This document shows, in pieces, positions 4,488 through 61,363 of a DNA stretch of 64,000 nt. This DNA is from a phage, in sequence record PZ386951.1. One strand, 5' to 3'. The first letter of the stretch is position 1; the number at the start of each line of letters is the position of its first letter. Made by a program: the position numbers and the translations under genes. The notes below the pieces were generated by a model. The model did no database searches. It had not been told where the DNA came from and saw only the letters and a program-made list of their open reading frames with translations.

Positions 4488-5045
4488 TTAAATGGAAAGA
4501 TACCATCCGTTGTAGTTGCTTTTTCTTACAACCTTACGAAGGTCTTCTCTATCACCGATGAACTTCGGAGTGTACTGGATGACACCTGGGTGAATTTCTT
4601 TAGTGTTGAATATAATTATACAGTCAGCGACCTGATGATTCAGAATGGGCCCTAGATTTATTCCAGAACCATATGGATACTCTCCGCTGCATCCCGTTGT
4701 TACAGAAATCCAACGTGAGTCAGTTTGATGTGTCTTAACTTCTACACGAAGCCCGCAGTATCTTGGATGCGCCAATACATCCCATGCGTATGTATACGGG
4801 TCATTAACGTCCTCTTGGCCTTTGTTAACATACCCGCTTAGCCAATCTGCTACAAAAAACTCTGCGTACACCGCGATACGGCATCTTTCGATAACTTCTG
4901 CTTTATCCTGGTTCGGGTTTTGTTTTAAAGAGTATCTTGCTGTATCAGCAATTTTGACCTTCATTTCACTAGTCAAGTCACTGTTAGATAGGGTAAATGA
5001 CGGAATCTGAAATAGTCTCTGTAAACCCGGATTCGTTTTCTGCAT
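4488..5045 (-). CDS. denB: DenB endonuclease IV
   Basis: 185-aa ORF, same length as T4 DenB, in conserved position between ndd block and rIIB. Confidence 0.8.
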   Translation of the reverse strand: MQKTNPGLQRLFQIPSFTLSNSDLTSEMKVKIADTARYSLKQNPNQDKAEVIERCRIAVYAEFFVADWLSGYVNKGQEDVNDPYTYAWDVLAHPRYCGLRVEVKTHQTDSRWISVTTGCSGEYPYGSGINLGPILNHQVADCIIIFNTKEIHPGVIQYTPKFIGDREDLRKVVRKSNYNGWYLSI

Positions 5046-5111
5046 TTAAACTTTCCTTTATGTCGGAATCACTGATATTCATATAATAAATCATAATTTC
5101 TCTTAAAACAA

Positions 5112-5127
5112 AAGGGCCGAAGCCCTT
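5112..5127 (-). terminator. intercistronic GC stem-loop with UUCG loop on transcript
   Basis: AAGGGC CGAA GCCCTT; minus-strand RNA loop reads UUCG. Confidence 0.5.
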
Positions 5128-5130
5128 ATT

Positions 5131-5325
5131 TTATTTGAATTGTGCAATTCTTTTCTCTAGACATTCAGCATAAGATTTCATTGAAATGAACTGTGAAAGC
5201 AGCAGTTCTTGCTCAACTGTACTAACCGTTAGAAACTTTGCGCTTTCTAAAAATTTGCTCAGTGCATTAATTTTGAGCATTAATTGATCGTATTCTTCTT
5301 TTACTCGTGCTTGATAACCTAACAT
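5131..5325 (-). CDS. hypothetical protein (64 aa)
   Basis: Minus ORF with ATG start, flanked by two UUCG-type hairpins. Confidence 0.55.
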   Translation of the reverse strand: MLGYQARVKEEYDQLMLKINALSKFLESAKFLTVSTVEQELLLSQFISMKSYAECLEKRIAQFK

Positions 5326-5339
5326 AATTTTCCTTAGTT

Positions 5340-5355
5340 AAGGGCCGAAGCCCTT
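5340..5355 (-). terminator. intercistronic GC stem-loop with UUCG loop, directly 3' of rIIB
   Basis: AAGGGCCGAAGCCCTT overlapping rIIB stop codon. Confidence 0.5.
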
Positions 5356-6292
5356 ATTTAAATTGTTCAGTAACGTCTTCAACTACTTCGTATTGGCAGG
5401 TACGCATTTTAGCATCGTTGTAATCAATCGGAATTGATACTACATCACGCGGATGTACTTTAACTTTTACAACTCGGCTAGTTGAACTGCCAAAGTGGCG
5501 AATATAAGATTTAGAACACACATGCAGACCACGAGAACAAGTTTGTGTATCATCGTCATTCACACGAGTACGTGGCATTTTAACTACTTTACCCGGACTG
5601 TTATCAAAGGTGTTTGAGTGACAGTCAAAGTAGTTGTCACGAACTACTTTCCAAGCATAGAAGTAACCATCTTCGGTGATTTCAATATCGTTTGCTACCA
5701 AGAAATCAAAAAGTCGAGATACCGCTTTCTGGCTTGGGTTTTCCAGCAGATTTTCCAAGAACGGAAAATAAAATTCAAAGTTTTCACCTTTTTCCATCGA
5801 GTCAAGAATACGATCAACTAAACCGGACCGCAATTCGATATTTTGATAGAACAAGCTTCCACCTTCAATTCGAACATCGCCGGAAATATATTTTTCAACA
5901 GCGCGACGAACATTAATTTTTTGTGCCGCTTCTTCCAACTTATCTGCTACAAGCAGATTAAGAATTTCCTGGAAGTTTGAATGAGTATTAGGAGTTGCGT
6001 TATAAGTTACACCGTCAACAGTAATTGAAATGAATTTTTTAGAAGCATTCCAAATAATATCAGATTTAGCAACTGGAGCAATAGCTACATCGCTATTAAC
6101 TTTAACTGTAATGTCACCGCTAATAGTAACTGCAGAGCGTTCTGCTTCTTCAGCATTTTTCAAAACACGACGGATTGTGTCAACCGATACACCTTGCCAA
6201 TCAGCCAATTCCTGCTGAGTGTAATTACCACTTGAATACAGTTTAACAATTTCAGCTTGTTCGTTTTTGGTCAGGCATTTAATATTGTACAT
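5354..6292 (-). CDS. rIIB: RIIB
   Basis: 312-aa ORF, same length as T4 rIIB, directly next to the 725-aa rIIA ORF. Confidence 0.88.
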   Translation of the reverse strand: MYNIKCLTKNEQAEIVKLYSSGNYTQQELADWQGVSVDTIRRVLKNAEEAERSAVTISGDITVKVNSDVAIAPVAKSDIIWNASKKFISITVDGVTYNATPNTHSNFQEILNLLVADKLEEAAQKINVRRAVEKYISGDVRIEGGSLFYQNIELRSGLVDRILDSMEKGENFEFYFPFLENLLENPSQKAVSRLFDFLVANDIEITEDGYFYAWKVVRDNYFDCHSNTFDNSPGKVVKMPRTRVNDDDTQTCSRGLHVCSKSYIRHFGSSTSRVVKVKVHPRDVVSIPIDYNDAKMRTCQYEVVEDVTEQFK

Positions 6293-6303
6293 AATTTTCC
6301 TTA

Positions 6304-8481
6304 TTAGGTCGCAAGGGCCTTCATAGTTTTGGCGATTTGGGAAACTTCATCATCACTTAAAGAGTTGCGATATCCGATGAAGTCGGAAACAATACGGAAT
6401 TTCTTGGTAAACTCAGCAACCATTTTATCACTGTTTTTTGAAGCATTATTTGATAATACATCAAAAAGATTAGTTACTGTCCAGATGTCATGACCGATGG
6501 TATCTTTTCCACCGTTGAAATATACACCCTGTAATGAACTAACCATATTAGCGAGTCGTGTATATTCTTCAGAAACTTCATCTACACTGAAGTACTTCAT
6601 CATAAAATCTAACTCAGGATACTTGATAATTTTATCAATATATCGTTTAGCTGAACTTGAATAACCTACATACTTATCATAATCTACATCATCAAAAGCA
6701 TCTACATATAAATCACGCAAAGCTTCAAAAATACATTGGCACTGACCGAGTTCTTTTACCTTTTTCTGTAAAAGCGGACGAATAACATAAAATTCATTAA
6801 TGCCAATAAGATTAGCCATACGAATCAAAATATTCATAGATGGATGACAAAGAGATGTAGTACCATCCATAGAGAAAATATCAGAACGATGCATATACGC
6901 TACATAACCAGTAATTTCATCTGCTTCTGACGTAAGTGTAAATAGTTCCTCTTTTTCCCAGCGCCCGTCTTTAATTTCAAATTTAAATGCTGTAGCAGCT
7001 TTAGGACGAGGAGCTTTACTTTTAATTACCTTTGGAATATAGCTTTTAACTAAAGCTTCAATTTCTGACAAATAATGAATGTTAACTTCATCACTTTCAA
7101 ACATCGCCATAATATCAGGAAGCAAATCAATCTGCGATTCTACTTCCGGATTAATAAACAGAAGACGCTCATTGTGATGAATATTTAAAGTGTTATTAAA
7201 TTCACTATCATCTAACGCATGTGCTAATCCACGGACAATATTAACACGATTTTTAATATTATCAATAACGATATTAATTTTTGTTGTATTAATACCAAAC
7301 AGACGATAACTTGATGCAACGGCTGAAGTTTCATGACTTTGCTTAATGCGTTTCAGTCGAGGGTCAAGATTTACTTCATACACAACCCCTGCATTACATA
7401 ACTTACTATCAGGTTCAAACATACTCTGCATCTTCTTATATGACAGATTTTTAGTCGTGAATTTGACTGAATTACTAATCATATAATCTCGAGCAGAATA
7501 CCCCATCTTCATCAATTCACGATATGTATGACGGGGAGATGTAGATTCTTTAAATCGTTTTACATCTTCATTAAATGCTTTCTCACTGAGTTCTTTAACT
7601 CGTTCAATAATATTTTTACGAGTGCGATCATCTAGTGAAAGAGCCTCGCGAGATGGAGCAATATCAAGTGAACCCATTGGAAACTTAATGTAATTCACTT
7701 CATTGCGAATGCTTAGCCAGTTACGGTCTCTAATAACACCATCGATAGGATAAACAATACCGCCATAGATAGCATATAATCCGCCGCGATCTGGCCAGTA
7801 TCTTTCTGGATTTACACCGTAATAATCATCAAAATCCGGAAAATAATCAATTTCGCGGTCAAGACCATTAATGATAGCCAAATCTTTGAACGGTCGCATG
7901 ATATAAGAAACTTCATAAGCAAAGTTTCTAAAGTCTTTTTCTTCAACTGGAACTACGATTTCAATACCAGTTTTATCATCTGGACCCATTTCTTTTACGA
8001 ATGTAGGTTTAATCTGCGGACCATCGCCATCCATGTAAGCTACATAACCACGAATTTCACCTTTATGATACGAAGTAATACTAAATGTATCAGTATAACT
8101 AAACGGAGATTTAGAACCTAAACCAAATCCGCCAATGAAATCGTTAGATTCAGCCTTAGATGAACTGAAGTATGAATTATACAGCCCAGGAGAATTATCA
8201 TCACCCTGAATATCAAAATCACTCATACCCGGACCAAAATCTCGACAAACAAATCGTGGATCTAAACGTCCAGGAACTTGAATGATAAATTTTTCAGGAT
8301 TTCCATTGAGAGCATGAGCATCAATCATGTTAGTAATTAATTCACGGACTACTGCGCGAATTTTGTTTGTATACAAATCAGATGACAGAATTTTAAATAC
8401 TTTAGGAGATGCTGTGATGCTAAATGCTTTTGATTTAGAACCATTACCAAGAATTGTTTCTTTTTCAGTGGTGATAATCAT
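6304..8481 (-). CDS. rIIA: RIIA
   Basis: 725-aa ORF, same length as T4 rIIA; conserved rIIB-rIIA-39 synteny. Confidence 0.88.
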
Positions 8482-8491
8482 AATTTCCTCA

Positions 8492-8695
8492 TTAATTCAT
8501 ATTACGCTTAATAACTTCAGCAACTTCTAGTAGTTCATCTTTAGTTGCGGTGTCGGATTGAATTTTATCTCTAATATCCTTAAAGCGGTTTTTAAATTCT
8601 TCGGCTTCTCCCATATCGAAAAAGCGTTGAATGATTCTATATTCTCGATGAACTGCTTTATCAAAAAGTTCTAAATTTACTTTATATGATTTCAT
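8492..8695 (-). CDS. hypothetical protein (67 aa), rIIA.1-like position
   Basis: Minus ORF between gene 39 and rIIA, downstream of early promoter. Confidence 0.6.
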
Positions 8696-8720
8696 TCCAA
8701 TATCCTCATTTGCCCAATTA

Positions 8721-8750
8721 ATTATACCACATCCTTGTGGTAAAGTAAAC
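8721..8750 (-). promoter_or_regulatory. T4-type early promoter (consensus TGGTATAAT / GTTTAC)
   Basis: ATTATACCA at 8721-8729, GTAAAC at 8745-8750. Confidence 0.65.
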
Positions 8751-10567
8751 TACTGGCTCATCCATTCTTTACGAAGGTCAGCATTATCTCCCATGAGCAT
8801 TTCAAAAAGCTCTTTCCAGTTCTCAGGAAGTTTAACAACATCATATACTGGATTTTGAATCATTTCACGATATTCAGATTTTTCCAAAGAGCCAAGTCCT
8901 TTAATATAACGGATGCTATGTTTAGGTAGAGCATCTTTGGCACTCTCATATTCAGCGACTGTATAAAACCATTCTTGTTTTTTACCGACCTGAGCGATGA
9001 TTACAGGAGTTTTGACAAAGCGAATTCGTCCTTGCTCAAACAATTCTGGCCAATTACTAAAAAATCCGAGCAGAGAAGGATAAATGCTTCCTAGACCATC
9101 ATAGTCAGCATCAGTCATAATAGCAATATTGCGATAATTCAAGTTTTCAGCTTTTTCACCAAGAACTAGACCAGTGATTGCGCAAATATCAAACAGTTCT
9201 TTGTTTTTAAGCATATCAGCATATGACATACCCCAGCTATTAAGAACTTTACCGCGTAATGGATAACCACCATGAAGTTCTTTATCGCGAACATCAATAA
9301 GATATCCGATAGCAGAATCACCCTCAGTCAAGAAAAGAGTAGTATCAGCATCTTTACCACAAAGATTCGCTTTAATATGTTTATGAACCTTAGCTTTAGA
9401 AGCCTTTTTAGCTGCTTTAGTTTCTGCCGCTTTTTCTGCCGCCAATTTACGAGCTAGTGCAGCTTCAATAATCGGCATCAAAATCGCTTCATTATTCAAA
9501 ATAGCACGTGAAATCTTTTTAGCATCAAGTTGAATATGACTACGGATTTCACCAAATGGAGAAGTCAAACGCTCTTTAGTTTGAGAATCAAATCGCATGT
9601 TTTTCATATCACGAACAAACATAACGATAGTCAAACATTCTTTAACGCGTGCTTTAGTTACATCAATTTTGAACTTACGTTTGATTTGTGGAATAAGGTC
9701 TTCACAAATATCATCCATAACACAATCAATGTGATGGCCACCATTCTTAGTATGAATGTTATTCACATAAGTTAATTGACGAAAACCATCCGGTGAACGA
9801 CCAACCGCAATAGAACAATTTTCTTGCTCTTGAACAATAGCATGTTCATCATACTGTCGTGCATATTTCTTAAAATTGCCCTGAACCTTTTTACCATTAA
9901 AGGTAAATTGAATATCAGGATAAACAACAGCAAGTGTCTGGAGACGATCTAATGTAATGTCAAGATAAACTTGGGACAGCTCATTAGTTTCAAATGTCAT
10001 AAAATCAGGAATGAAAGTAACACGGGTTCCTTTCCATTTTCCAGGAATATCTTCCCATGATTTATTTTCCATGCCATTTGAACAACGAACTACAATATTA
10101 TTTTGACCGTCGCCAGTTTCACCAACAAACATCACAGAAAAAATATTTGTCAAACTAGAACCAACACCATTCATACCGCCAGTGACGCGTTCTTTATCAT
10201 CACCAAAGTTACCACCTGCTTTTGGAATAGTCCATGCAGCAACAGGACCAGGAATTTCTTCACCGGTAGGTGTTTTAACCATCGCCTGTGGAATACCGCG
10301 ACCGTTATCTTCAACTGTTACTTGATTGTTTTTAATAGTAACATTAATTTTATTTGCGAATTTAAACTTAGTACGAATACCTTCATCGACTGAGTTATCG
10401 ATAATTTCATCAATAAGCTTAACAAGACCAGGTACATACTGAACACTTTCCCATTTACCAAACAGAAAGCGCTCATGCATTTCATTAGCTGAAGAGCCAA
10501 TGTACATGCCGCTACGCTTTTTGATATGTTCAATATCGCTCAGAATTTTAATTTCATTCTTAATCAT
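8750..10567 (-). CDS. 39: DNA topoisomerase II large subunit gp39 (GyrB-like ATPase), unsplit form
   Basis: About 605 aa from ATG at 10565-10567 (track start is GTG one codon upstream); MIKNEIKILSDIEHIKKRSGMYIGS... GHKL ATPase; no separate gene 60. Confidence 0.92.
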   Translation of the reverse strand: MIKNEIKILSDIEHIKKRSGMYIGSSANEMHERFLFGKWESVQYVPGLVKLIDEIIDNSVDEGIRTKFKFANKINVTIKNNQVTVEDNGRGIPQAMVKTPTGEEIPGPVAAWTIPKAGGNFGDDKERVTGGMNGVGSSLTNIFSVMFVGETGDGQNNIVVRCSNGMENKSWEDIPGKWKGTRVTFIPDFMTFETNELSQVYLDITLDRLQTLAVVYPDIQFTFNGKKVQGNFKKYARQYDEHAIVQEQENCSIAVGRSPDGFRQLTYVNNIHTKNGGHHIDCVMDDICEDLIPQIKRKFKIDVTKARVKECLTIVMFVRDMKNMRFDSQTKERLTSPFGEIRSHIQLDAKKISRAILNNEAILMPIIEAALARKLAAEKAAETKAAKKASKAKVHKHIKANLCGKDADTTLFLTEGDSAIGYLIDVRDKELHGGYPLRGKVLNSWGMSYADMLKNKELFDICAITGLVLGEKAENLNYRNIAIMTDADYDGLGSIYPSLLGFFSNWPELFEQGRIRFVKTPVIIAQVGKKQEWFYTVAEYESAKDALPKHSIRYIKGLGSLEKSEYREMIQNPVYDVVKLPENWKELFEMLMGDNADLRKEWMSQ

Positions 10568-11276: not shown

Positions 11277-11453
11277 TCACCCTTTAAGTAAATCGTAAAA
11301 ACCACCATTCACATGCTTAGGAGCAGAAACTAACCGAATAGCAATCCGATGACAATCAGGACATACATCAGTATCCCTTTCAGAAATTTTCTTGATTTTT
11401 TCGTATTCTTTTGCACAGTCTTTGGATTGACATTTATAATCATAAAGAGGCAT
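11277..11453 (-). CDS. small zinc-ribbon protein (57 aa)
   Basis: MPLYDYKCQSKDCAKEYEKIKKISERDTDVCPDCHRIAIRL... contains CxxxxC...CxxC; below the ORF track size cut-off. Confidence 0.45.
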   Translation of the reverse strand: MPLYDYKCQSKDCAKEYEKIKKISERDTDVCPDCHRIAIRLVSAPKHVNGGFYDLLKG

Positions 11454-11455
11454 AA

Positions 11456-11875
11456 TTATTCCTTAAAGTGAGCTTTCAACATTTGATACAAGGACCATGC
11501 TTGTTCATTATTTTCAATAGTAACTTTCATTACCGGGAATTCTGTGAAATCTTCTATTTGTTCTTGCTCTTCCTGCTCTTGTTCTTCAGCAGCCTGATAT
11601 GGATTTTCAACTTCATCAAAGAACCCAGCTTCGTTAGTAGAGAGCCAGATAAAGTTTTCGTCAAGGATATCACCACCGGCACAACGTTTGAGCACACCTA
11701 TGGATGTCATAATTTTAGTAGGACGCCCAAGATAATCAGCATCTAAAATTTTAAAAGGCTCCATACCTAAACGTCGTGCATAGATTCCGTTATCAGTATG
11801 GTCTTTAATAAAATTTTCTTGAGCTTGTTTATTTTTAAATTGATACCATTTATTAACTTCAAATTTAATAGCCAT
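11456..11875 (-). CDS. hypothetical protein (139 aa) with acidic [10 protein letters not shown] stretch
   Basis: Minus ORF with ATG start; in goF/cef position of the T4 map, identity not verified. Confidence 0.55.
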
Positions 11876-12093
11876 TAATAAATTTCCTTCCAGTAAGTTG
11901 TGCCATCTTCAGTAATTTCACGAAATACACCGTAAATTGGTTGTTTATCACCGACTTTCTCATACACATAAACCGAAGTCAAGTGAGTAAACTTGCTAGT
12001 ATGTTCCTTTTGAACTACTACCAAATCTGGATCGAATAATACATCTTCAAATTCATCATTAGTGCAATTCTGAACAATTTTACGTTTCATCAT
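11875..12093 (-). CDS. hypothetical protein (72 aa)
   Basis: Minus ORF with ATG start, coupled to downstream ORF. Confidence 0.5.
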
Positions 12094-12263
12094 AATTTCC
12101 TCATTAATTGAACATTGGAGAGATGCGTTTCAGAAGAGTATCAGCACCTTTAACGAATTATCCATTTTATTCTTCAAGTTGTTTTCTGTATCAGTAGTTG
12201 ATATTGATATAGTACCATAATCAACTACTGATGTATATAGTTTTATGAAAAAAATTTTAAACT

Positions 12264-12755
12264 TTATGCATAGCGAGCTTTGCTGTAGTGTTTAATCCAA
12301 CTTTCAGGAATGACTTTGTATGTTCCTAAAAATACCACATTGTACAGCTTAACACCATCTTCTACCCATTGATCAGTAATGTATGCACACATAGCGCGAG
12401 TACGCTGAGGAAGTGGTTGTCCACCTTCGGTAAATTCAAACTCATAAGGAGCAACGAACTTGATAGCTTGACCGAGTTTCCACTTAAAGTCTACACCTAC
12501 GTGCGAAGTATCAATTGTTTCAATTCCTTTAGCAGGAACATCTTTCAAAAACGCAGATTCAAGAAATTTCGCACGAACATAGCCAAACTGAGGTTTAGAC
12601 TTTCCATCTTTAGGAATGATACGAACTTTTACTTCAGAATCTTCATCTTTAACACCATGCTTAAGCTGAATGCTTACAATTTCGACCAATTTTCCTGCTG
12701 CTTTAGAACGGGATTTATCAGATACACGAGCAATTTCACCAATATTAATAATCAT
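12264..12755 (-). CDS. motB: MotB-like protein (163 aa)
   Basis: Length (T4 MotB about 162 aa) and position between gene 39 block and dexA; sequence identity not verified. Confidence 0.5.
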   Translation of the reverse strand: MIINIGEIARVSDKSRSKAAGKLVEIVSIQLKHGVKDEDSEVKVRIIPKDGKSKPQFGYVRAKFLESAFLKDVPAKGIETIDTSHVGVDFKWKLGQAIKFVAPYEFEFTEGGQPLPQRTRAMCAYITDQWVEDGVKLYNVVFLGTYKVIPESWIKHYSKARYA

Positions 12756-56263: not shown

Positions 56264-56294
56264 TGTATAGTACCACAGAGGAACAGTCTTGTAA
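56264..56294 (-). promoter_or_regulatory. T4-type early promoter
   Basis: TATAGTACCA at 56264-56273, GTAAAC at 56289-56294. Confidence 0.6.
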
Positions 56295-56298
56295 ACCA

Positions 56299-56703: not shown

Positions 56704-57672
56704 TTATTTCAGAAGAGTAACCTCAGCAATTTCTTCCCAACCGTTTTTGTCGGTCATAATAAAGTCAGCAAGATAAAGTGCAGTACGCAGTGAAACATTG
56801 CGTAAACGATTAACATTGACTTTCATCCATGATAATGCTTTATAAGTTTCTTCATCAGAAAGACCGCGCTTTTGCATCATGTCAGTTGAAAGAATAACAT
56901 CTTCAACCCTGACCATAATTTCTTCATTAGTGTGAACACCCAAATCCAAATAAACTGAGCGGGACACTAATGCTTGTAAATGTGGAGCAAGTTTAGTACC
57001 ACGGTCTAATTCGCGGTCAATGTCAACGTTTGTGATAAAAACAATCGTTCCTTTAAATTCAAACTCACGCTCAATGCCTTTTTCTTCTAAGTAAGAAGAT
57101 GCAGTGCTCCAGCAGACTTTACGGGTCTCTCCGGTGTCCAGAGCAGCTTTCAGAAGATTAAGAATGTCCATATCAGAGAAAACATCCACATCATCAATCA
57201 AAAGGACAGAATTCTCTTCACGATTATTCCAGAGCTGTTCATAAAGACCGATACCAGAGATTTTACCGTTAATGCTTTTATACTCAATGTATCCAATATC
57301 ATTTGCTTTATTTAAAGCTTTATCTAAAGAATACGTTTTACCAATACCCGCCGCACCAGAGATAATTAATGAACGAATGTTTCCGTTAATAATACCATTC
57401 GTCATCATTCCCATAACATTAAATCTTTTATTAATGCGGGTTTTCATATCTTCATATGATTCTTTAACTTCTTCAACTTTTACACCATCATATGAAATGT
57501 CTGATTTGTAAACCCAAACACCACGACGTTTACCGTCAATTTCAACAAAAACTTTACCATCTCCTTGTGCATCTACCGGAGCATTATCTGGGAACCATTC
57601 GCCTAAGAGCTCAAAAGTTCCAGAGATTTCTTTACCGAAGTAGATACCCTTATTGATAGTTACAGTTTTCAT
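56704..57672 (-). CDS. AAA+/P-loop ATPase (DnaC/IstB-like Walker motifs)
   Basis: About 322 aa from MKTVTINKG (GGAGAA RBS); Walker A GAAGIGKT, Walker B LLIDDVD, sensor-like FITNVD. Confidence 0.65.
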   Translation of the reverse strand: MKTVTINKGIYFGKEISGTFELLGEWFPDNAPVDAQGDGKVFVEIDGKRRGVWVYKSDISYDGVKVEEVKESYEDMKTRINKRFNVMGMMTNGIINGNIRSLIISGAAGIGKTYSLDKALNKANDIGYIEYKSINGKISGIGLYEQLWNNREENSVLLIDDVDVFSDMDILNLLKAALDTGETRKVCWSTASSYLEEKGIEREFEFKGTIVFITNVDIDRELDRGTKLAPHLQALVSRSVYLDLGVHTNEEIMVRVEDVILSTDMMQKRGLSDEETYKALSWMKVNVNRLRNVSLRTALYLADFIMTDKNGWEEIAEVTLLK

Positions 57673-57710
57673 TTTTATTCTCCAAATCTGTATCAGTAGT
57701 TGATAGTTGT

Positions 57711-57740
57711 ATAGTACCATAAAGCTTTATGCTTGTAAAC
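57711..57740 (-). promoter_or_regulatory. T4-type early promoter upstream of the ATPase gene
   Basis: ATAGTACCA at 57711-57719, GTAAAC at 57735-57740. Confidence 0.6.
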
Positions 57741-57770
57741 AACTTTGTGAAAAATTTTTGAAATAAAAAT

Positions 57771-57786
57771 GGAGCCCGAAGGCTCC
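57771..57786 (-). terminator. GC stem-loop (UUCG loop) 3' of the nucleotidyltransferase gene
   Basis: GGAGCC CGAA GGCTCC. Confidence 0.5.
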
Positions 57787-57789
57787 CTA

Positions 57790-58803
57790 TCATTTATAAT
57801 AACTTCGGTGGTTTTCAAGATAGACCTTCTCAAGGAAGTCATCCCAGAAACTCATGTCTACTTTTTGCTGCATACCGTTCTTAGAAGCTTCAGTAGATGC
57901 TGCTTCTACTTGATCGACCACATCTTCCAAAAACTCTTGAACCGTTTTAAATGGATGTTTACCCAACTTCACGTCGAGAATAAATGGAGCATCTTGGAGT
58001 GGATAAACTAAGTCGCCAGTTTTGTAAATTTCCAATAGTTGGAGTCCACCACGGCAAGCATGACTCAGAGCTTTCCAGTCAATACCTTCATTGGCTTCGG
58101 CCTTACGAGCACGTTCACCATATTCAGCATCTAATTTGTTCAGTGACTGCTTAAGCTCAATAAGAGAAAGCGTTGTCTGATATTTACGACCCAACACAGT
58201 GTAGAACGTTTGTGGGCCTGTTTTCTCATGATTATGGAACACCCATTCACAGAATTCGTTTTCTGGAAGACGATGCTTAATATCTTCAACTTTAGTGCGA
58301 CGCTGCTTAATGGAACCGTCTTCTTGGTAATCAACCCATTGCTCGGGGATTTGATTAACTACTTTCAATACATCACGTAATGCAGCCAAACGAGAACCCT
58401 TGACACCGTATTTAGAAGCTTGCTTGCGGACATATCCTAAATAGGATTTCATGTTAGTCGTATAAAAACGAGAACGGTTGTCTTGAATAAACTTCCACAC
58501 GTCAGGCAAATCAGATTTAACAACTAGTTCAGGTGGAGTGTGGAGCATATCCAATGCTACAGTTTCACCATCTGCTGCTAATTTAAAGAAATACTTAAGA
58601 CTATACAATTCGTGGTCAATATCATCTTTAGTGTTTTTAGATGATGTGTTGTTGGTATTTTTACTCATATGCTCTTTAACATTTCCGATAAGAATATCGC
58701 GAGCAGGAGGAATAAAGATTTCTTTAAAATCTACATCAGATTCTGGAGTAGAAGTTCCATAAAGATGACTACCAAAATAGCTTTTCATTACTGTTTTCAT
58801 CAT
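57790..58803 (-). CDS. Pol-beta-superfamily nucleotidyltransferase-like protein
   Basis: 337 aa; N-terminal FGSHLYGTSTPESDVDF fits the GS-x(9-13)-DxD NTase signature, with downstream acidic candidates (DIDHE, ALDMLH). Confidence 0.6.
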   Translation of the reverse strand: MMKTVMKSYFGSHLYGTSTPESDVDFKEIFIPPARDILIGNVKEHMSKNTNNTSSKNTKDDIDHELYSLKYFFKLAADGETVALDMLHTPPELVVKSDLPDVWKFIQDNRSRFYTTNMKSYLGYVRKQASKYGVKGSRLAALRDVLKVVNQIPEQWVDYQEDGSIKQRRTKVEDIKHRLPENEFCEWVFHNHEKTGPQTFYTVLGRKYQTTLSLIELKQSLNKLDAEYGERARKAEANEGIDWKALSHACRGGLQLLEIYKTGDLVYPLQDAPFILDVKLGKHPFKTVQEFLEDVVDQVEAASTEASKNGMQQKVDMSFWDDFLEKVYLENHRSYYK

Positions 58804-59261
58804 TCAGCCTTATATTCAATAACAGGACATACTTTAGCTTTACGCGCTTTTAAAAATTCGACGATAACCGATTTCTTGGGTTGAATAGGAGGTAAACCCT
58901 TATACGCCCTATCAATATTTTCTACATGTAAAGCATAATCCTTTTTCCATTTATAATCTTTATATTTTTCATGCAGTTGTGCAGGAATAACAAATGAACC
59001 AATAATAAGTAAAACAAGCAAAATGGCAAGTATAAATGCTGATGGAATAAGAGTCCATAAACTACCAAAAATAAGCCATTTCTGTATGATTTCTGCGCAG
59101 ATAATAGTTAGACCTGCGAGTATAGTACATCCGAAAAAAGAAACGAAAAATGTAGGAATAACAATAGACCAAAAGTATGCACACAGTGTCTTAGGTCGTT
59201 TCCATTCGTCGTTAAACATTTTGAATAATTTATAATGCCAAGAGCTTTCATTAATAATCAT
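58800..59261 (-). CDS. membrane protein (153 aa, two TM segments), translationally coupled to the NTase gene
   Basis: Stop overlaps NTase ATG (ATGA); hydrophobic segments FWSIVIPTFFVSFFGCTILAGLTIICA and LIPSAFILAILLVLLIIGSFVI. Confidence 0.55.
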   Translation of the reverse strand: MIINESSWHYKLFKMFNDEWKRPKTLCAYFWSIVIPTFFVSFFGCTILAGLTIICAEIIQKWLIFGSLWTLIPSAFILAILLVLLIIGSFVIPAQLHEKYKDYKWKKDYALHVENIDRAYKGLPPIQPKKSVIVEFLKARKAKVCPVIEYKAE

Positions 59262-59791: not shown

Positions 59792-60325
59792 TCACTTTGA
59801 AATCATAGTTGGAATGACAGAATCAAGATAAGTCTTTAGCGCAATAGCTTCGTCTTTGGTAAATGTGACAATATGCGATCGAAAATCGTCAATTTGACGA
59901 ATAGTTAAGACATCTCCCTCTTCATAACATTTTGATACATTTAAAAGAGTTTCATCATTCTGATTGCAAGCGTTAGTAATAATAGCATTGCAATTTTTGA
60001 GCCATTTTAAACTATGTTTTCTTTCATTAGAATAATAAAAATATTTAATCTTAGCTATAAAACTATCCCAATGGATAACTGATAAACACATTGACTCACT
60101 TTTAATATTAAATCCTGGGCATGAAGAATAAAAATGAATTTTGTGCTCATCATTGATGCTTACTATTTTATCAGTATAAGGATATTCAATTTGGGTTAAA
60201 TGAATAATTTCACTAGGTGTAAAATACATCATATCGTCTTCTTGCGTCAAACGATACATATTATTTACTTTTTCTATAGCCAATTCACCAAAAAGTGGAC
60301 TAACTTCTAATACTAATCGTTTCAT
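59792..60325 (-). CDS. hypothetical protein (about 177 aa), paralog pair member
   Basis: Start at first ATG (MKRLVLEV...; track start GTG); C-terminus VTFTKDEAIALKTYLDSVIPTM. Confidence 0.5.
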   Translation of the reverse strand: MKRLVLEVSPLFGELAIEKVNNMYRLTQEDDMMYFTPSEIIHLTQIEYPYTDKIVSINDEHKIHFYSSCPGFNIKSESMCLSVIHWDSFIAKIKYFYYSNERKHSLKWLKNCNAIITNACNQNDETLLNVSKCYEEGDVLTIRQIDDFRSHIVTFTKDEAIALKTYLDSVIPTMISK

Positions 60326-60493
60326 ATTGATTCTCTTCGACTCGCTCACAATTACATACTCCTTTGAATCATATCAATAATATTGTTCACCAAATTATAA
60401 GTAAACATTGGGTAATTATATTGAATCATCACATACACAACAAACAAAATTTTCATTCTCTTCTCCTTGACAGTTGGCAAGATTACTATACCA

Positions 60494-61326: not shown

Positions 61327-61342
61327 CGGTAAAATGAAAAAA

Positions 61343-61358
61343 GTCTCCCGAAGGAGAC
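61343..61358 (-). terminator. GC stem-loop (UUCG loop) 3' of rI.-1
   Basis: GTCTCC CGAA GGAGAC. Confidence 0.5.
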
Positions 61359-61363
61359 TAATG

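Follow-up and report, generated by a model that had tools for sequence, protein, structure and literature searches.

RNA repair was first discovered in bacteriophage T4, where Pnkp and the RNA ligase Rnl1 act against the anticodon nuclease PrrC. RloC-type nucleases excise a nucleotide, and simple religation of the cut molecule yields a dead tRNA. To survive RloC-type nucleases, a phage would need a way to put the lost nucleotide back, and for this missing "refill" step NrdC.11 is the obvious candidate. NrdC.11 is a predicted nucleotidyltransferase (NTase) whose gene we analyze here in a 64,000-nucleotide stretch of phage DNA (PZ386951.1; herein the window). The feature under study (56704..59261) comprises nrdC.11, the gene of a small membrane protein, and nrdC.10, which encodes an AAA+ ATPase. 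We find that NrdC.11 belongs to a separate, "long" subfamily of the RlaP family, whose cellular genes often form tandem pairs with a canonical RlaP gene in repair loci, and that its cellular relatives lie in an RNA-repair neighborhood; its two phage neighbors show no specific co-inheritance with it.

The closest described enzymes are the canonical RlaPs. Iyer et al. (2021) summarize the prediction that RlaP restores nucleotides removed by RloC-like nucleases before ligation and note that jumbo phages carry RlaP in a pattern matching that of RNA ligases (PMC7824862); the idea of nucleotide refilling already appears in Burroughs and Aravind, as cited in that paper, and in the 2025 RlaP preprint described next. 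Carruthers, Fatma, and Huang report that two canonical Pseudomonas RlaPs add one to two nucleoside monophosphates to RNA 3'-OH ends, prefer Mn2+, are inactive on DNA or protein, and raise the aminoacylation of repaired tRNA that had lost a nucleotide (bioRxiv 10.64898/2025.12.29.696909). In the same study, T4 NrdC.11 is listed among the RlaPs, its function being given as unknown, and falls in a distinct cluster (cluster 5) of the sequence similarity network. The authors also point out that RtcB requires a 3'-phosphate, which makes the end chemistry a problem for this ligase; as the T4 ligases use a 5'-phosphate, this problem does not arise in T4. Earlier, Nolan et al. (2006) had reported an NTase match (COG3541) for nrdC.11 and an AAA match for nrdC.10, the latter gene being present in only three of six T4-like phages (PMC1524935). 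Both genes are already annotated, and the assignment of nrdC.11 to the RlaP family is known from the literature. Literature searches returned no functional study of nrdC.10, nrdC.11, Y05G, or Y05H, and the remaining value of the locus lies in the function of NrdC.11 and in the distinction between long and canonical RlaP.

The sequence of the window is that of a T4-like Tequatrovirus, and many Tequatrovirus genomes, including U115, Sf21, and UFV13, match the 4.4 kb around the feature with 97 to 98% identity. All genes of the feature region lie on the minus strand (Table 1). NrdC.11 has 98.2% identity to its T4 homolog and 99.1% to that of T2, NrdC.10 is 99.7% identical to its T4 counterpart, and both names agree between annotated relatives and T4; a preliminary description of this DNA, which had raised the possibility of nrdC.10/nrdC.11-type open reading frames (ORFs), was thus on the right track. 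The 337-residue NTase ORF begins MMKTVMKSYFGSHLYGTSTPESDVDF, and its junction with the membrane-protein gene reads GAATGATGAAA, in agreement with the start-stop overlap described before: counted from its first ATG, the NTase ORF overlaps the upstream gene with its TGA stop by 4 nucleotides, and counted from the second, the start used in annotated relatives (336 residues), by 1. Misleading public labels are common: NrdC.10 and NrdC.11 proteins appear as "thioredoxin" (from nrdC), "putative HNH homing endonuclease", or "processivity clamp loader".

NrdC.11 matches the Pfam family RlaP (PF10127, "RNA repair pathway DNA polymerase beta family") with 44.6 bits (cut-off 23; E = 1.9e-11), well past what chance would produce. 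The match spans residues 7 through 135, corresponding to profile positions 23 through 142 of 249, and the relatives of NrdC.11, close and distant, all carry PF10127 in precomputed annotation. The family is large, with 2898 matches in a 90%-clustered database and 3450 clusters at 50% identity, mostly full length (~320 residues). Across a set of 56 sequences (28 to 99% identity), the N-terminal residues invariant in 56/56 include G11, S12, D23, D25, K27, N57, D61, and D63, and a second invariant block lies in the C-terminal half (Y228, G229, R231, W243, K244, H248, R251). D25 and D63 fall on predicted β-strands (24 through 31 and 62 through 68), and the sequence has the elements of a Pol-beta active site, namely hG[GS], DxD, and, on a neighboring strand, another carboxylate. 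NrdC.11 is thus a predicted Pol-beta nucleotidyltransferase of the RlaP family; the preliminary description had reached the superfamily from the GS and DxD motifs, and the Pfam match bears this out.

An AlphaFold model built on the 56-sequence alignment (mean predicted local distance difference test score, pLDDT, 86) consists of an NTase core (approximately residues 1 through 130), a variable β insert (~155 through 210), and a helical C-terminal domain. Foldseek searches with this model return only NTases, each at a weak score: one list gives kanamycin NTase (E = 4.6e-3) and then 3c18, HalB, Tam41, and AadA, with LinB, glutamine-synthetase adenylyltransferase, DrrA, and MNT as further structural neighbors, and HalB and 3c18 fit the model best overall. 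The fold comparison that the preliminary description had proposed returns the expected class of enzyme, and structures of cGAS, DncV, and OAS are absent from the top 50 to 60 matches. Sequence searches of the PDB with NrdC.11, NrdC.10, the membrane protein, a long-RlaP profile, and a canonical-RlaP profile gave nothing useful, and an NCBIfam scan gave noise only. T4 tRNA maturation relies on the host CCA enzyme; a CCA-adding role for NrdC.11 was rejected, no CCA-enzyme family or structure appearing among the Pfam and fold matches.

Our linkage sample comprises 80 viral and 80 cellular loci encoding NrdC.11 relatives, with flanks of up to 8 kb; the cellular loci are those of the 80 closest cellular homologs (32 to 54% identity, full length). 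In cells, the NrdC.11-like gene is often directly followed by a shorter NTase gene (254 to 277 residues). These shorter NTases match PF10127 over its whole length (positions 5 through 248) with 175 to 212 bits, whereas their NrdC.11-like partners reach 42 to 61 bits over the N-terminal half only. Profile-profile alignment (hhalign) of the long with the canonical form likewise covers only residues 3 through 129, the NTase core, at a probability of 91.6%, and places D23, D25, D63, and D85 of NrdC.11 on the canonical invariant residues D49, D51, D88, and E110. Neither Pfam nor hhalign detects full-length similarity of NrdC.11 to canonical RlaP that includes the C-terminal helical domain. Based on this core-only match, we regard NrdC.11 as the representative of a distinct long subfamily: the catalytic core is, on these alignments, common to the long and canonical forms, and the substrate-binding half is not recognizably alike.

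Tandem long and canonical RlaP genes on the same strand occur in 20/80 cellular loci (L010, L012, L023, L026, L028, L035 through L037, L049, L056, L058, L061, L062, L068, L069, L072, L074, L078, L080, and L081), often beside Pnkp, Hen1, or RtcB; in L061, for example, the long gene (8001-8984) is followed by the canonical one (8981-9802). Such a two-paralog cassette suggests that the two forms have different, cooperating roles. Their phage distributions differ as well. Canonical RlaP is found in only 80 phage records, all of them jumbo phages (of Pseudomonas, Brevundimonas, Caulobacter, and similar hosts) and none from Escherichia; the long, NrdC.11-like form is found in 1519. No canonical RlaP accompanies nrdC.11 in the window.

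To describe the wider context, flanking ORFs of the 80 cellular loci were clustered and representatives were scanned with Pfam. The recurrent neighbors are bacterial Pnkp (PF16542), RtcB (PF01139), Hen1 (PF12623), Ro60/TROVE (PF05731), a PrfH-like release factor, and a RecQ-like helicase. At least one of Pnkp, RtcB, Hen1, Ro60/TROVE, and PrfH is present in 19 loci, and in several of these, such as L052, L061, L069, and L082, Pnkp ends a few bases from the NTase start on the same strand. The union of loci with an RNA-repair gene or a tandem canonical RlaP comes to 32/80. Because these are one- or two-copy genes and the 16-kb flanks amount to <1% of a genome, we judge the association to be far above chance, by this reasoning rather than by a statistical test.

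Repair genes also stand near the homolog in some viruses. In the Sinorhizobium phage phiM12, the NrdC.11 homolog lies between two putative RNA ligase genes, ~4 kb to each side (L002 coordinates 645-1709, 4995-6020, and 10515 to the locus end; ligase types pfam09414 and pfam09511), and in a 168-kb IMG/VR viral contig (L165) the homolog (7998-8942) is followed 2.4 kb downstream by an RtcB-like gene (11317-12513). A MutT/Nudix gene is located directly downstream of the phiM12 homolog.

Taken together, we consider it fairly probable that the three genes of the feature are separately inherited T-even accessory genes and that NrdC.11 adds untemplated nucleotides to damaged RNA 3' ends before ligation. 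Its typical substrate would be a tRNA after a host anticodon nuclease has cleaved the anticodon loop and trimmed it. T4 Pnkp would heal the cut ends, giving a 3'-OH and a 5'-phosphate; NrdC.11 would then refill the lost nucleotide or nucleotides, one or a few, in untemplated fashion at the RNA 3'-OH; and T4 RNA ligase 1 or 2 would seal the break, so that a fraction of the repaired products would regain function. NrdC.11 would thereby serve counter-defense. The T4 segment from nrdC.11 to mobD.3 can be deleted (PMC9825161), which is the expectation for an accessory counter-defense gene, and T4 genetics makes the refill role directly testable.

Several observations weigh against RNA end extension by NrdC.11. 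In 48/80 cellular loci, the flanks contain no RNA-repair gene and no canonical RlaP. Genes for a ligase or Pnkp are absent from the vicinity of nrdC.11 both in the window and in the T4 locus, and since the T-even gene is not beside pseT, rnlA, or rnlB, its phage context gives no direct support. The measured RlaP activity is confined to the canonical Pseudomonas enzymes; as the C-terminal 200 residues of NrdC.11, which should bind the substrate, do not align to canonical RlaP, the biochemistry of PfRlaP is not simply transferable, and the tandem pairing in cells suggests that the two forms do different things. HalB, the best structural match of NrdC.11, makes DNA oligomers and not RNA extensions. 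Finally, the membrane-protein gene and nrdC.10 stay near nrdC.11 across T-even genera down to ~52% NTase identity, which may reflect a functional link.

A version of the repair proposal that we hold only tentatively is that the long subfamily has an activity distinct from that of the canonical one and supplies the missing T4 function, the rebuilding of anticodon nucleotides removed by RloC-type nucleases.

A different acceptor altogether is an unlikely alternative. NrdC.11 would then be an NTase acting on DNA 3' ends, in protein-primed oligonucleotide synthesis (as HalB), on a protein by AMPylation (as MNT), or on a small molecule, in the manner of aminoglycoside or lincosamide NTases. The structural neighbors named above (HalB, kanamycin NTase, LinB, AadA, glutamine-synthetase adenylyltransferase, DrrA, and MNT) would fit such a role, the studied enzymes set no limit on the substrate given how far the C-terminal domain departs from canonical RlaP, and the 48 cellular loci without a repair neighbor or canonical RlaP point in the same direction. 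Against it, the repair genes (19/80) and canonical RlaP (20/80) occur near the cellular homologs far more often than random placement would, by our reasoning, allow, and no HEPN-toxin, resistance, or glutamine-synthetase context was seen among the clustered cellular neighbors. The MntA model gives NrdC.11 13.2 bits (cut-off 60), and no HEPN gene is adjacent in the window.

In the viral half of the linkage sample, the two partner genes were compared with other, unrelated genes from this part of the genome. Within 8 kb of the NrdC.11 gene, a macro-domain gene is found in 53/80 viral loci, thymidine kinase in 52, MobD.6 in 49, the two-transmembrane (2-TM) membrane gene (upstream) in ~45, and NrdC.10 (downstream) in 38; the membrane gene is thus not near the NTase in ~35, and both partners occur together in 37. 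Both are confined to T-even-like lineages, with NTase identity of at least ~52%. In relatives, another gene often stands between the membrane gene and nrdC.11, and this is so in most genera; the gap from nrdC.11 to nrdC.10 ranges from 110 bp to 2.3 kb, other genes being possible between them. Neither partner lies close to the NTase gene in RB43/RB16-like phages, Aeromonas phages, phi-ST2, KPN8, and phiM12, and neither is near the cellular homologs (0/80 loci). As the linkage of the partners is not above that of thymidine kinase and the gaps are variable, we read it as the ordinary synteny of the T-even accessory region; the three genes look like neighbors by shared ancestry and not a signaling or suicide module.

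The longest nrdC.10 ORF (56704..57720) would encode 338 residues; the 322-residue form starts at the ATG at 57672, which is preceded by a Shine-Dalgarno sequence (GGAG), and annotations of relatives use this start. The protein has an N-terminal β domain (residues 1 through 62) followed by an AAA+ core and a helical lid. Walker A (GAAGIGKT, 106 through 113) and Walker B (LLIDD, 157 through 161; LLIDDVD, 157 through 163), from which the preliminary description had called a P-loop ATPase of 322 residues, are present and, across 45 relatives, invariant or almost so; full conservation extends, among others, to G106, G109, G111, K112, D160, D161, N215, and R238 and to an SRS motif at 237 through 239. 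Foldseek searches with the AlphaFold2 (AF2) model (pLDDT 88.9) return ORC/Cdc6, dynein AAA, RFC, RuvB, and Hda (E ~1e-5, probability 1.0, template modeling score ~0.4). The Pfam AAA models all stay under cut-off (best AAA_14, 23.4 bits against 27), and the matches to the Hda model (14.7 bits, cut-off 194.8) and to Cdc6 (E = 0.12) are not significant. LLIDDVD and the invariant ALVSRS (234 through 239) resemble Walker B and box VII of the DnaA/Hda/DnaC clade, for which database support is weak and nonsignificant. NrdC.10, which falls in PHROG 1250, is a genuine AAA+ ATPase that matches no named AAA+ family by sequence model. It shares the α/β core, lid, and Walker A/B motifs with initiator and clamp-loader AAA+ proteins (ORC/Cdc6, Hda/DnaA, RFC, RuvB) but adds a family-specific N-terminal β domain, and its sequence matches to them are insignificant.

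Between nrdC.11 and nrdC.10 lies a stem-loop, GGAGCC-UUCG-GGCUCC (57786..57771, minus strand), followed by a U-run; this is the UUCG hairpin already given in the preliminary description. It is followed by a promoter-like site (TTTACA, a 17-nucleotide spacer, TACTAT, and an upstream TG). Our scan found 10 terminator-like sites (2.3 expected) and 29 promoter-like sites (28.8 expected). With no enrichment of the promoter class, the call of a promoter for nrdC.10 is based on its good fit and its position; of the early promoter previously ascribed to the ATPase gene, the T4-early-like site stands, and taken alone such a site is weak evidence. A second UUCG-loop terminator-like hairpin (AGUCUCC-UUCG-GGAGACU and a U-run; 61342..61359, minus strand) is located downstream of the MobD.6-like gene, and a second TTTACA-17-TACTAT site with upstream TG (56267..56295, minus strand) is located ahead of nrdC.8. 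The region appears to be divided into several short early transcription units.

That NrdC.10 and NrdC.11 cooperate without the membrane protein, the ATPase for example delivering or remodeling damaged tRNA or ribosomes for the NTase, strikes us as quite improbable. In its favor, both are accessory genes, and nrdC.10 lies on the same strand 0.1 to 2.3 kb downstream in 38/80 viral loci, which span Escherichia, Klebsiella, Acinetobacter, and other T4-like phages. However, nrdC.10 has its own promoter-like site past the terminator-like hairpin; the phages listed above with no partner gene near the NTase (RB43/RB16-like and Aeromonas phages, phi-ST2, KPN8, phiM12), like the cellular NTase loci, lack a neighboring NrdC.10; and the NrdC.10 fold is nearest to DNA-handling AAA+ proteins (ORC/Cdc6, RFC, RuvB, Hda). 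Conversely, NrdC.10 occurs with no NTase nearby in Vibrio phage D491s (L167:7989-8993), where it lies between ribonucleotide reductase and topoisomerase II genes, and in Asteriusvirus UE-S1 (L168:7977-8750), where a shorter form that lacks the N-terminal β domain has unrelated neighbors. To go by its vibriophage neighbors, NrdC.10 may serve DNA or nucleotide metabolism and not RNA repair.

Table 1. Features of the analyzed region, in order of transcription
Feature	Position in window	Strand	Basis or remark
y05I-like paralog	59792..60349	-	PF24449/PF24448 pair, first in transcription order
y05I-like paralog, 173 residues	59264..59785	-	PF24449/PF24448 pair, second in transcription order
Membrane protein gene, 153 residues	58800..59261	-	ORF; PHROG 944 "membrane protein"
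nrdC.11, 337 residues	57790..58803	-	Predicted Pol-beta-fold NTase, RlaP family PF10127, long subfamily
Terminator-like hairpin GGAGCC-UUCG-GGCUCC, then AUUUUUAUUU	57761..57786	-	Starts 4 nucleotides past the nrdC.11 stop
T4-early-type promoter-like site	57711..57739	-	Ahead of nrdC.10; consensus match only
nrdC.10, 322 residues, AAA+ ATPase	56704..57672	-	Walker motifs, AF2 fold, T4 identity

Transcription order continues past nrdC.10 with nrdC.9, nrdC.8, and onward. Upstream, the 153-residue protein has two long hydrophobic stretches on the Kyte-Doolittle scale (residues ~25 through 60 and 62 through 98), as expected of the two-transmembrane protein described before, and a basic C-terminal tail (net charge +6). 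It matches PHROG 944 (E = 2.3e-49) and is present in 861 phage records; no Pfam family scores above cut-off, and no PDB chain, HalA included, matches it in sequence at E ≤ 10. It is a small accessory membrane protein, a neighbor of nrdC.11 in many T-even phages. In T4, the HNH homing endonuclease gene mobD replaces both the membrane gene and the 173-residue y05I-like gene; tblastn of the T4 locus found no trace of either, and of the two tandem y05I-like paralogs T4 has only the MobD.1-like one. The T4 site (L166:2613-3392) resembles a homing-endonuclease insertion/replacement polymorphism. Because T4 retains an intact nrdC.11 without the membrane gene, the latter is dispensable for keeping nrdC.11. 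The public label of MobD.1, likewise misleading, is [quoted passage not shown].

The preliminary description had likened the combination of NTase, membrane protein, and ATPase to signaling and abortive-infection modules. In such a nucleotide-signaling or Hailong-like module, of all three genes or of the NTase and membrane protein, an oligonucleotide or cyclic nucleotide made by the NTase would control the membrane protein and the ATPase would act as sensor or regulator; the phage might employ such a module to exclude superinfecting phages, to time lysis, or to abort infection. The order 2-TM gene, NTase, ATPase does recur in T-even-like genera (both partners in the 37 viral loci noted above), and stop and start codons overlap in this phage. 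The remaining evidence makes the module very improbable: T4 has mobD in place of the membrane gene, yet an intact nrdC.11; most genera have an intervening gene, and up to 2.3 kb precede nrdC.10; linkage to the partners is below that of thymidine kinase, and none of the 80 cellular homologs has either one; nrdC.10 is set off from nrdC.11 by the terminator-like hairpin and promoter-like site described above; PADLOC defense models gave no family at E ≤ 1 for NrdC.11, NrdC.10, or the membrane protein; and HalB and HalA have no sequence-level relation to their would-be counterparts. On the linkage, PADLOC, and T4 results the module claim of the preliminary description is not supported; the two neighbors appear not to be functionally tied to NrdC.11, and the signaling/abortive-infection reading can be set aside.

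Least probable of all is a phage-borne Hailong-like pair, in which an oligonucleotide made by NrdC.11 would gate or regulate the membrane protein for lysis timing or superinfection exclusion and the RNA-repair context of the cellular relatives would be a different use of the same scaffold; an activity of long RlaP distinct from that of the canonical form is more likely.

NrdC.11 was also compared with known NTase systems. Cyclic-oligonucleotide-based antiphage signaling systems (CBASS) employ cGAS/DncV-like nucleotidyltransferases (CD-NTases) of the same Pol-beta superfamily, and a CBASS NTase can pair with a small transmembrane effector; the neighbors of nrdC.11, in contrast, have no cyclic-nucleotide-sensing domain. 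CD-NTase models found no counterpart in NrdC.11, neither among the PADLOC families (E ≤ 1) nor among those of Pfam, and a CD-NTase/CBASS assignment was rejected, there being neither a sequence nor a fold match and no obligate effector. Hailong HalB has the generic NTase core in common with NrdC.11, at 14% identity and with no sequence-level relation found, but is much shorter (~217 against 337 residues); HalA has no similarity to the 2-TM protein, whose gene is not co-inherited with the NTase, and Hailong is a host defense whereas the nrdC.11 locus is phage encoded. Kanamycin/aminoglycoside NTases and MNT-HEPN proteins share with NrdC.11 the NTase core and a helical, HEPN-like C-terminal bundle, and 1kny, 6nlt, 4nqf, and 2hsb are fold matches with this two-domain plan; MNT-HEPN type VII toxin-antitoxin systems differ in the small, MntA-type NTase, against the 337 residues of NrdC.11. 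Canonical RlaP is the nearest of the compared enzymes. Its core and that of NrdC.11 agree in the GS motif, DxD, and two more acidic positions, the first of them an Asp; NrdC.11 is 60 to 80 residues longer, with a β insert and a nonaligning C-terminal domain, and in cells the two forms exist as adjacent paralogs.

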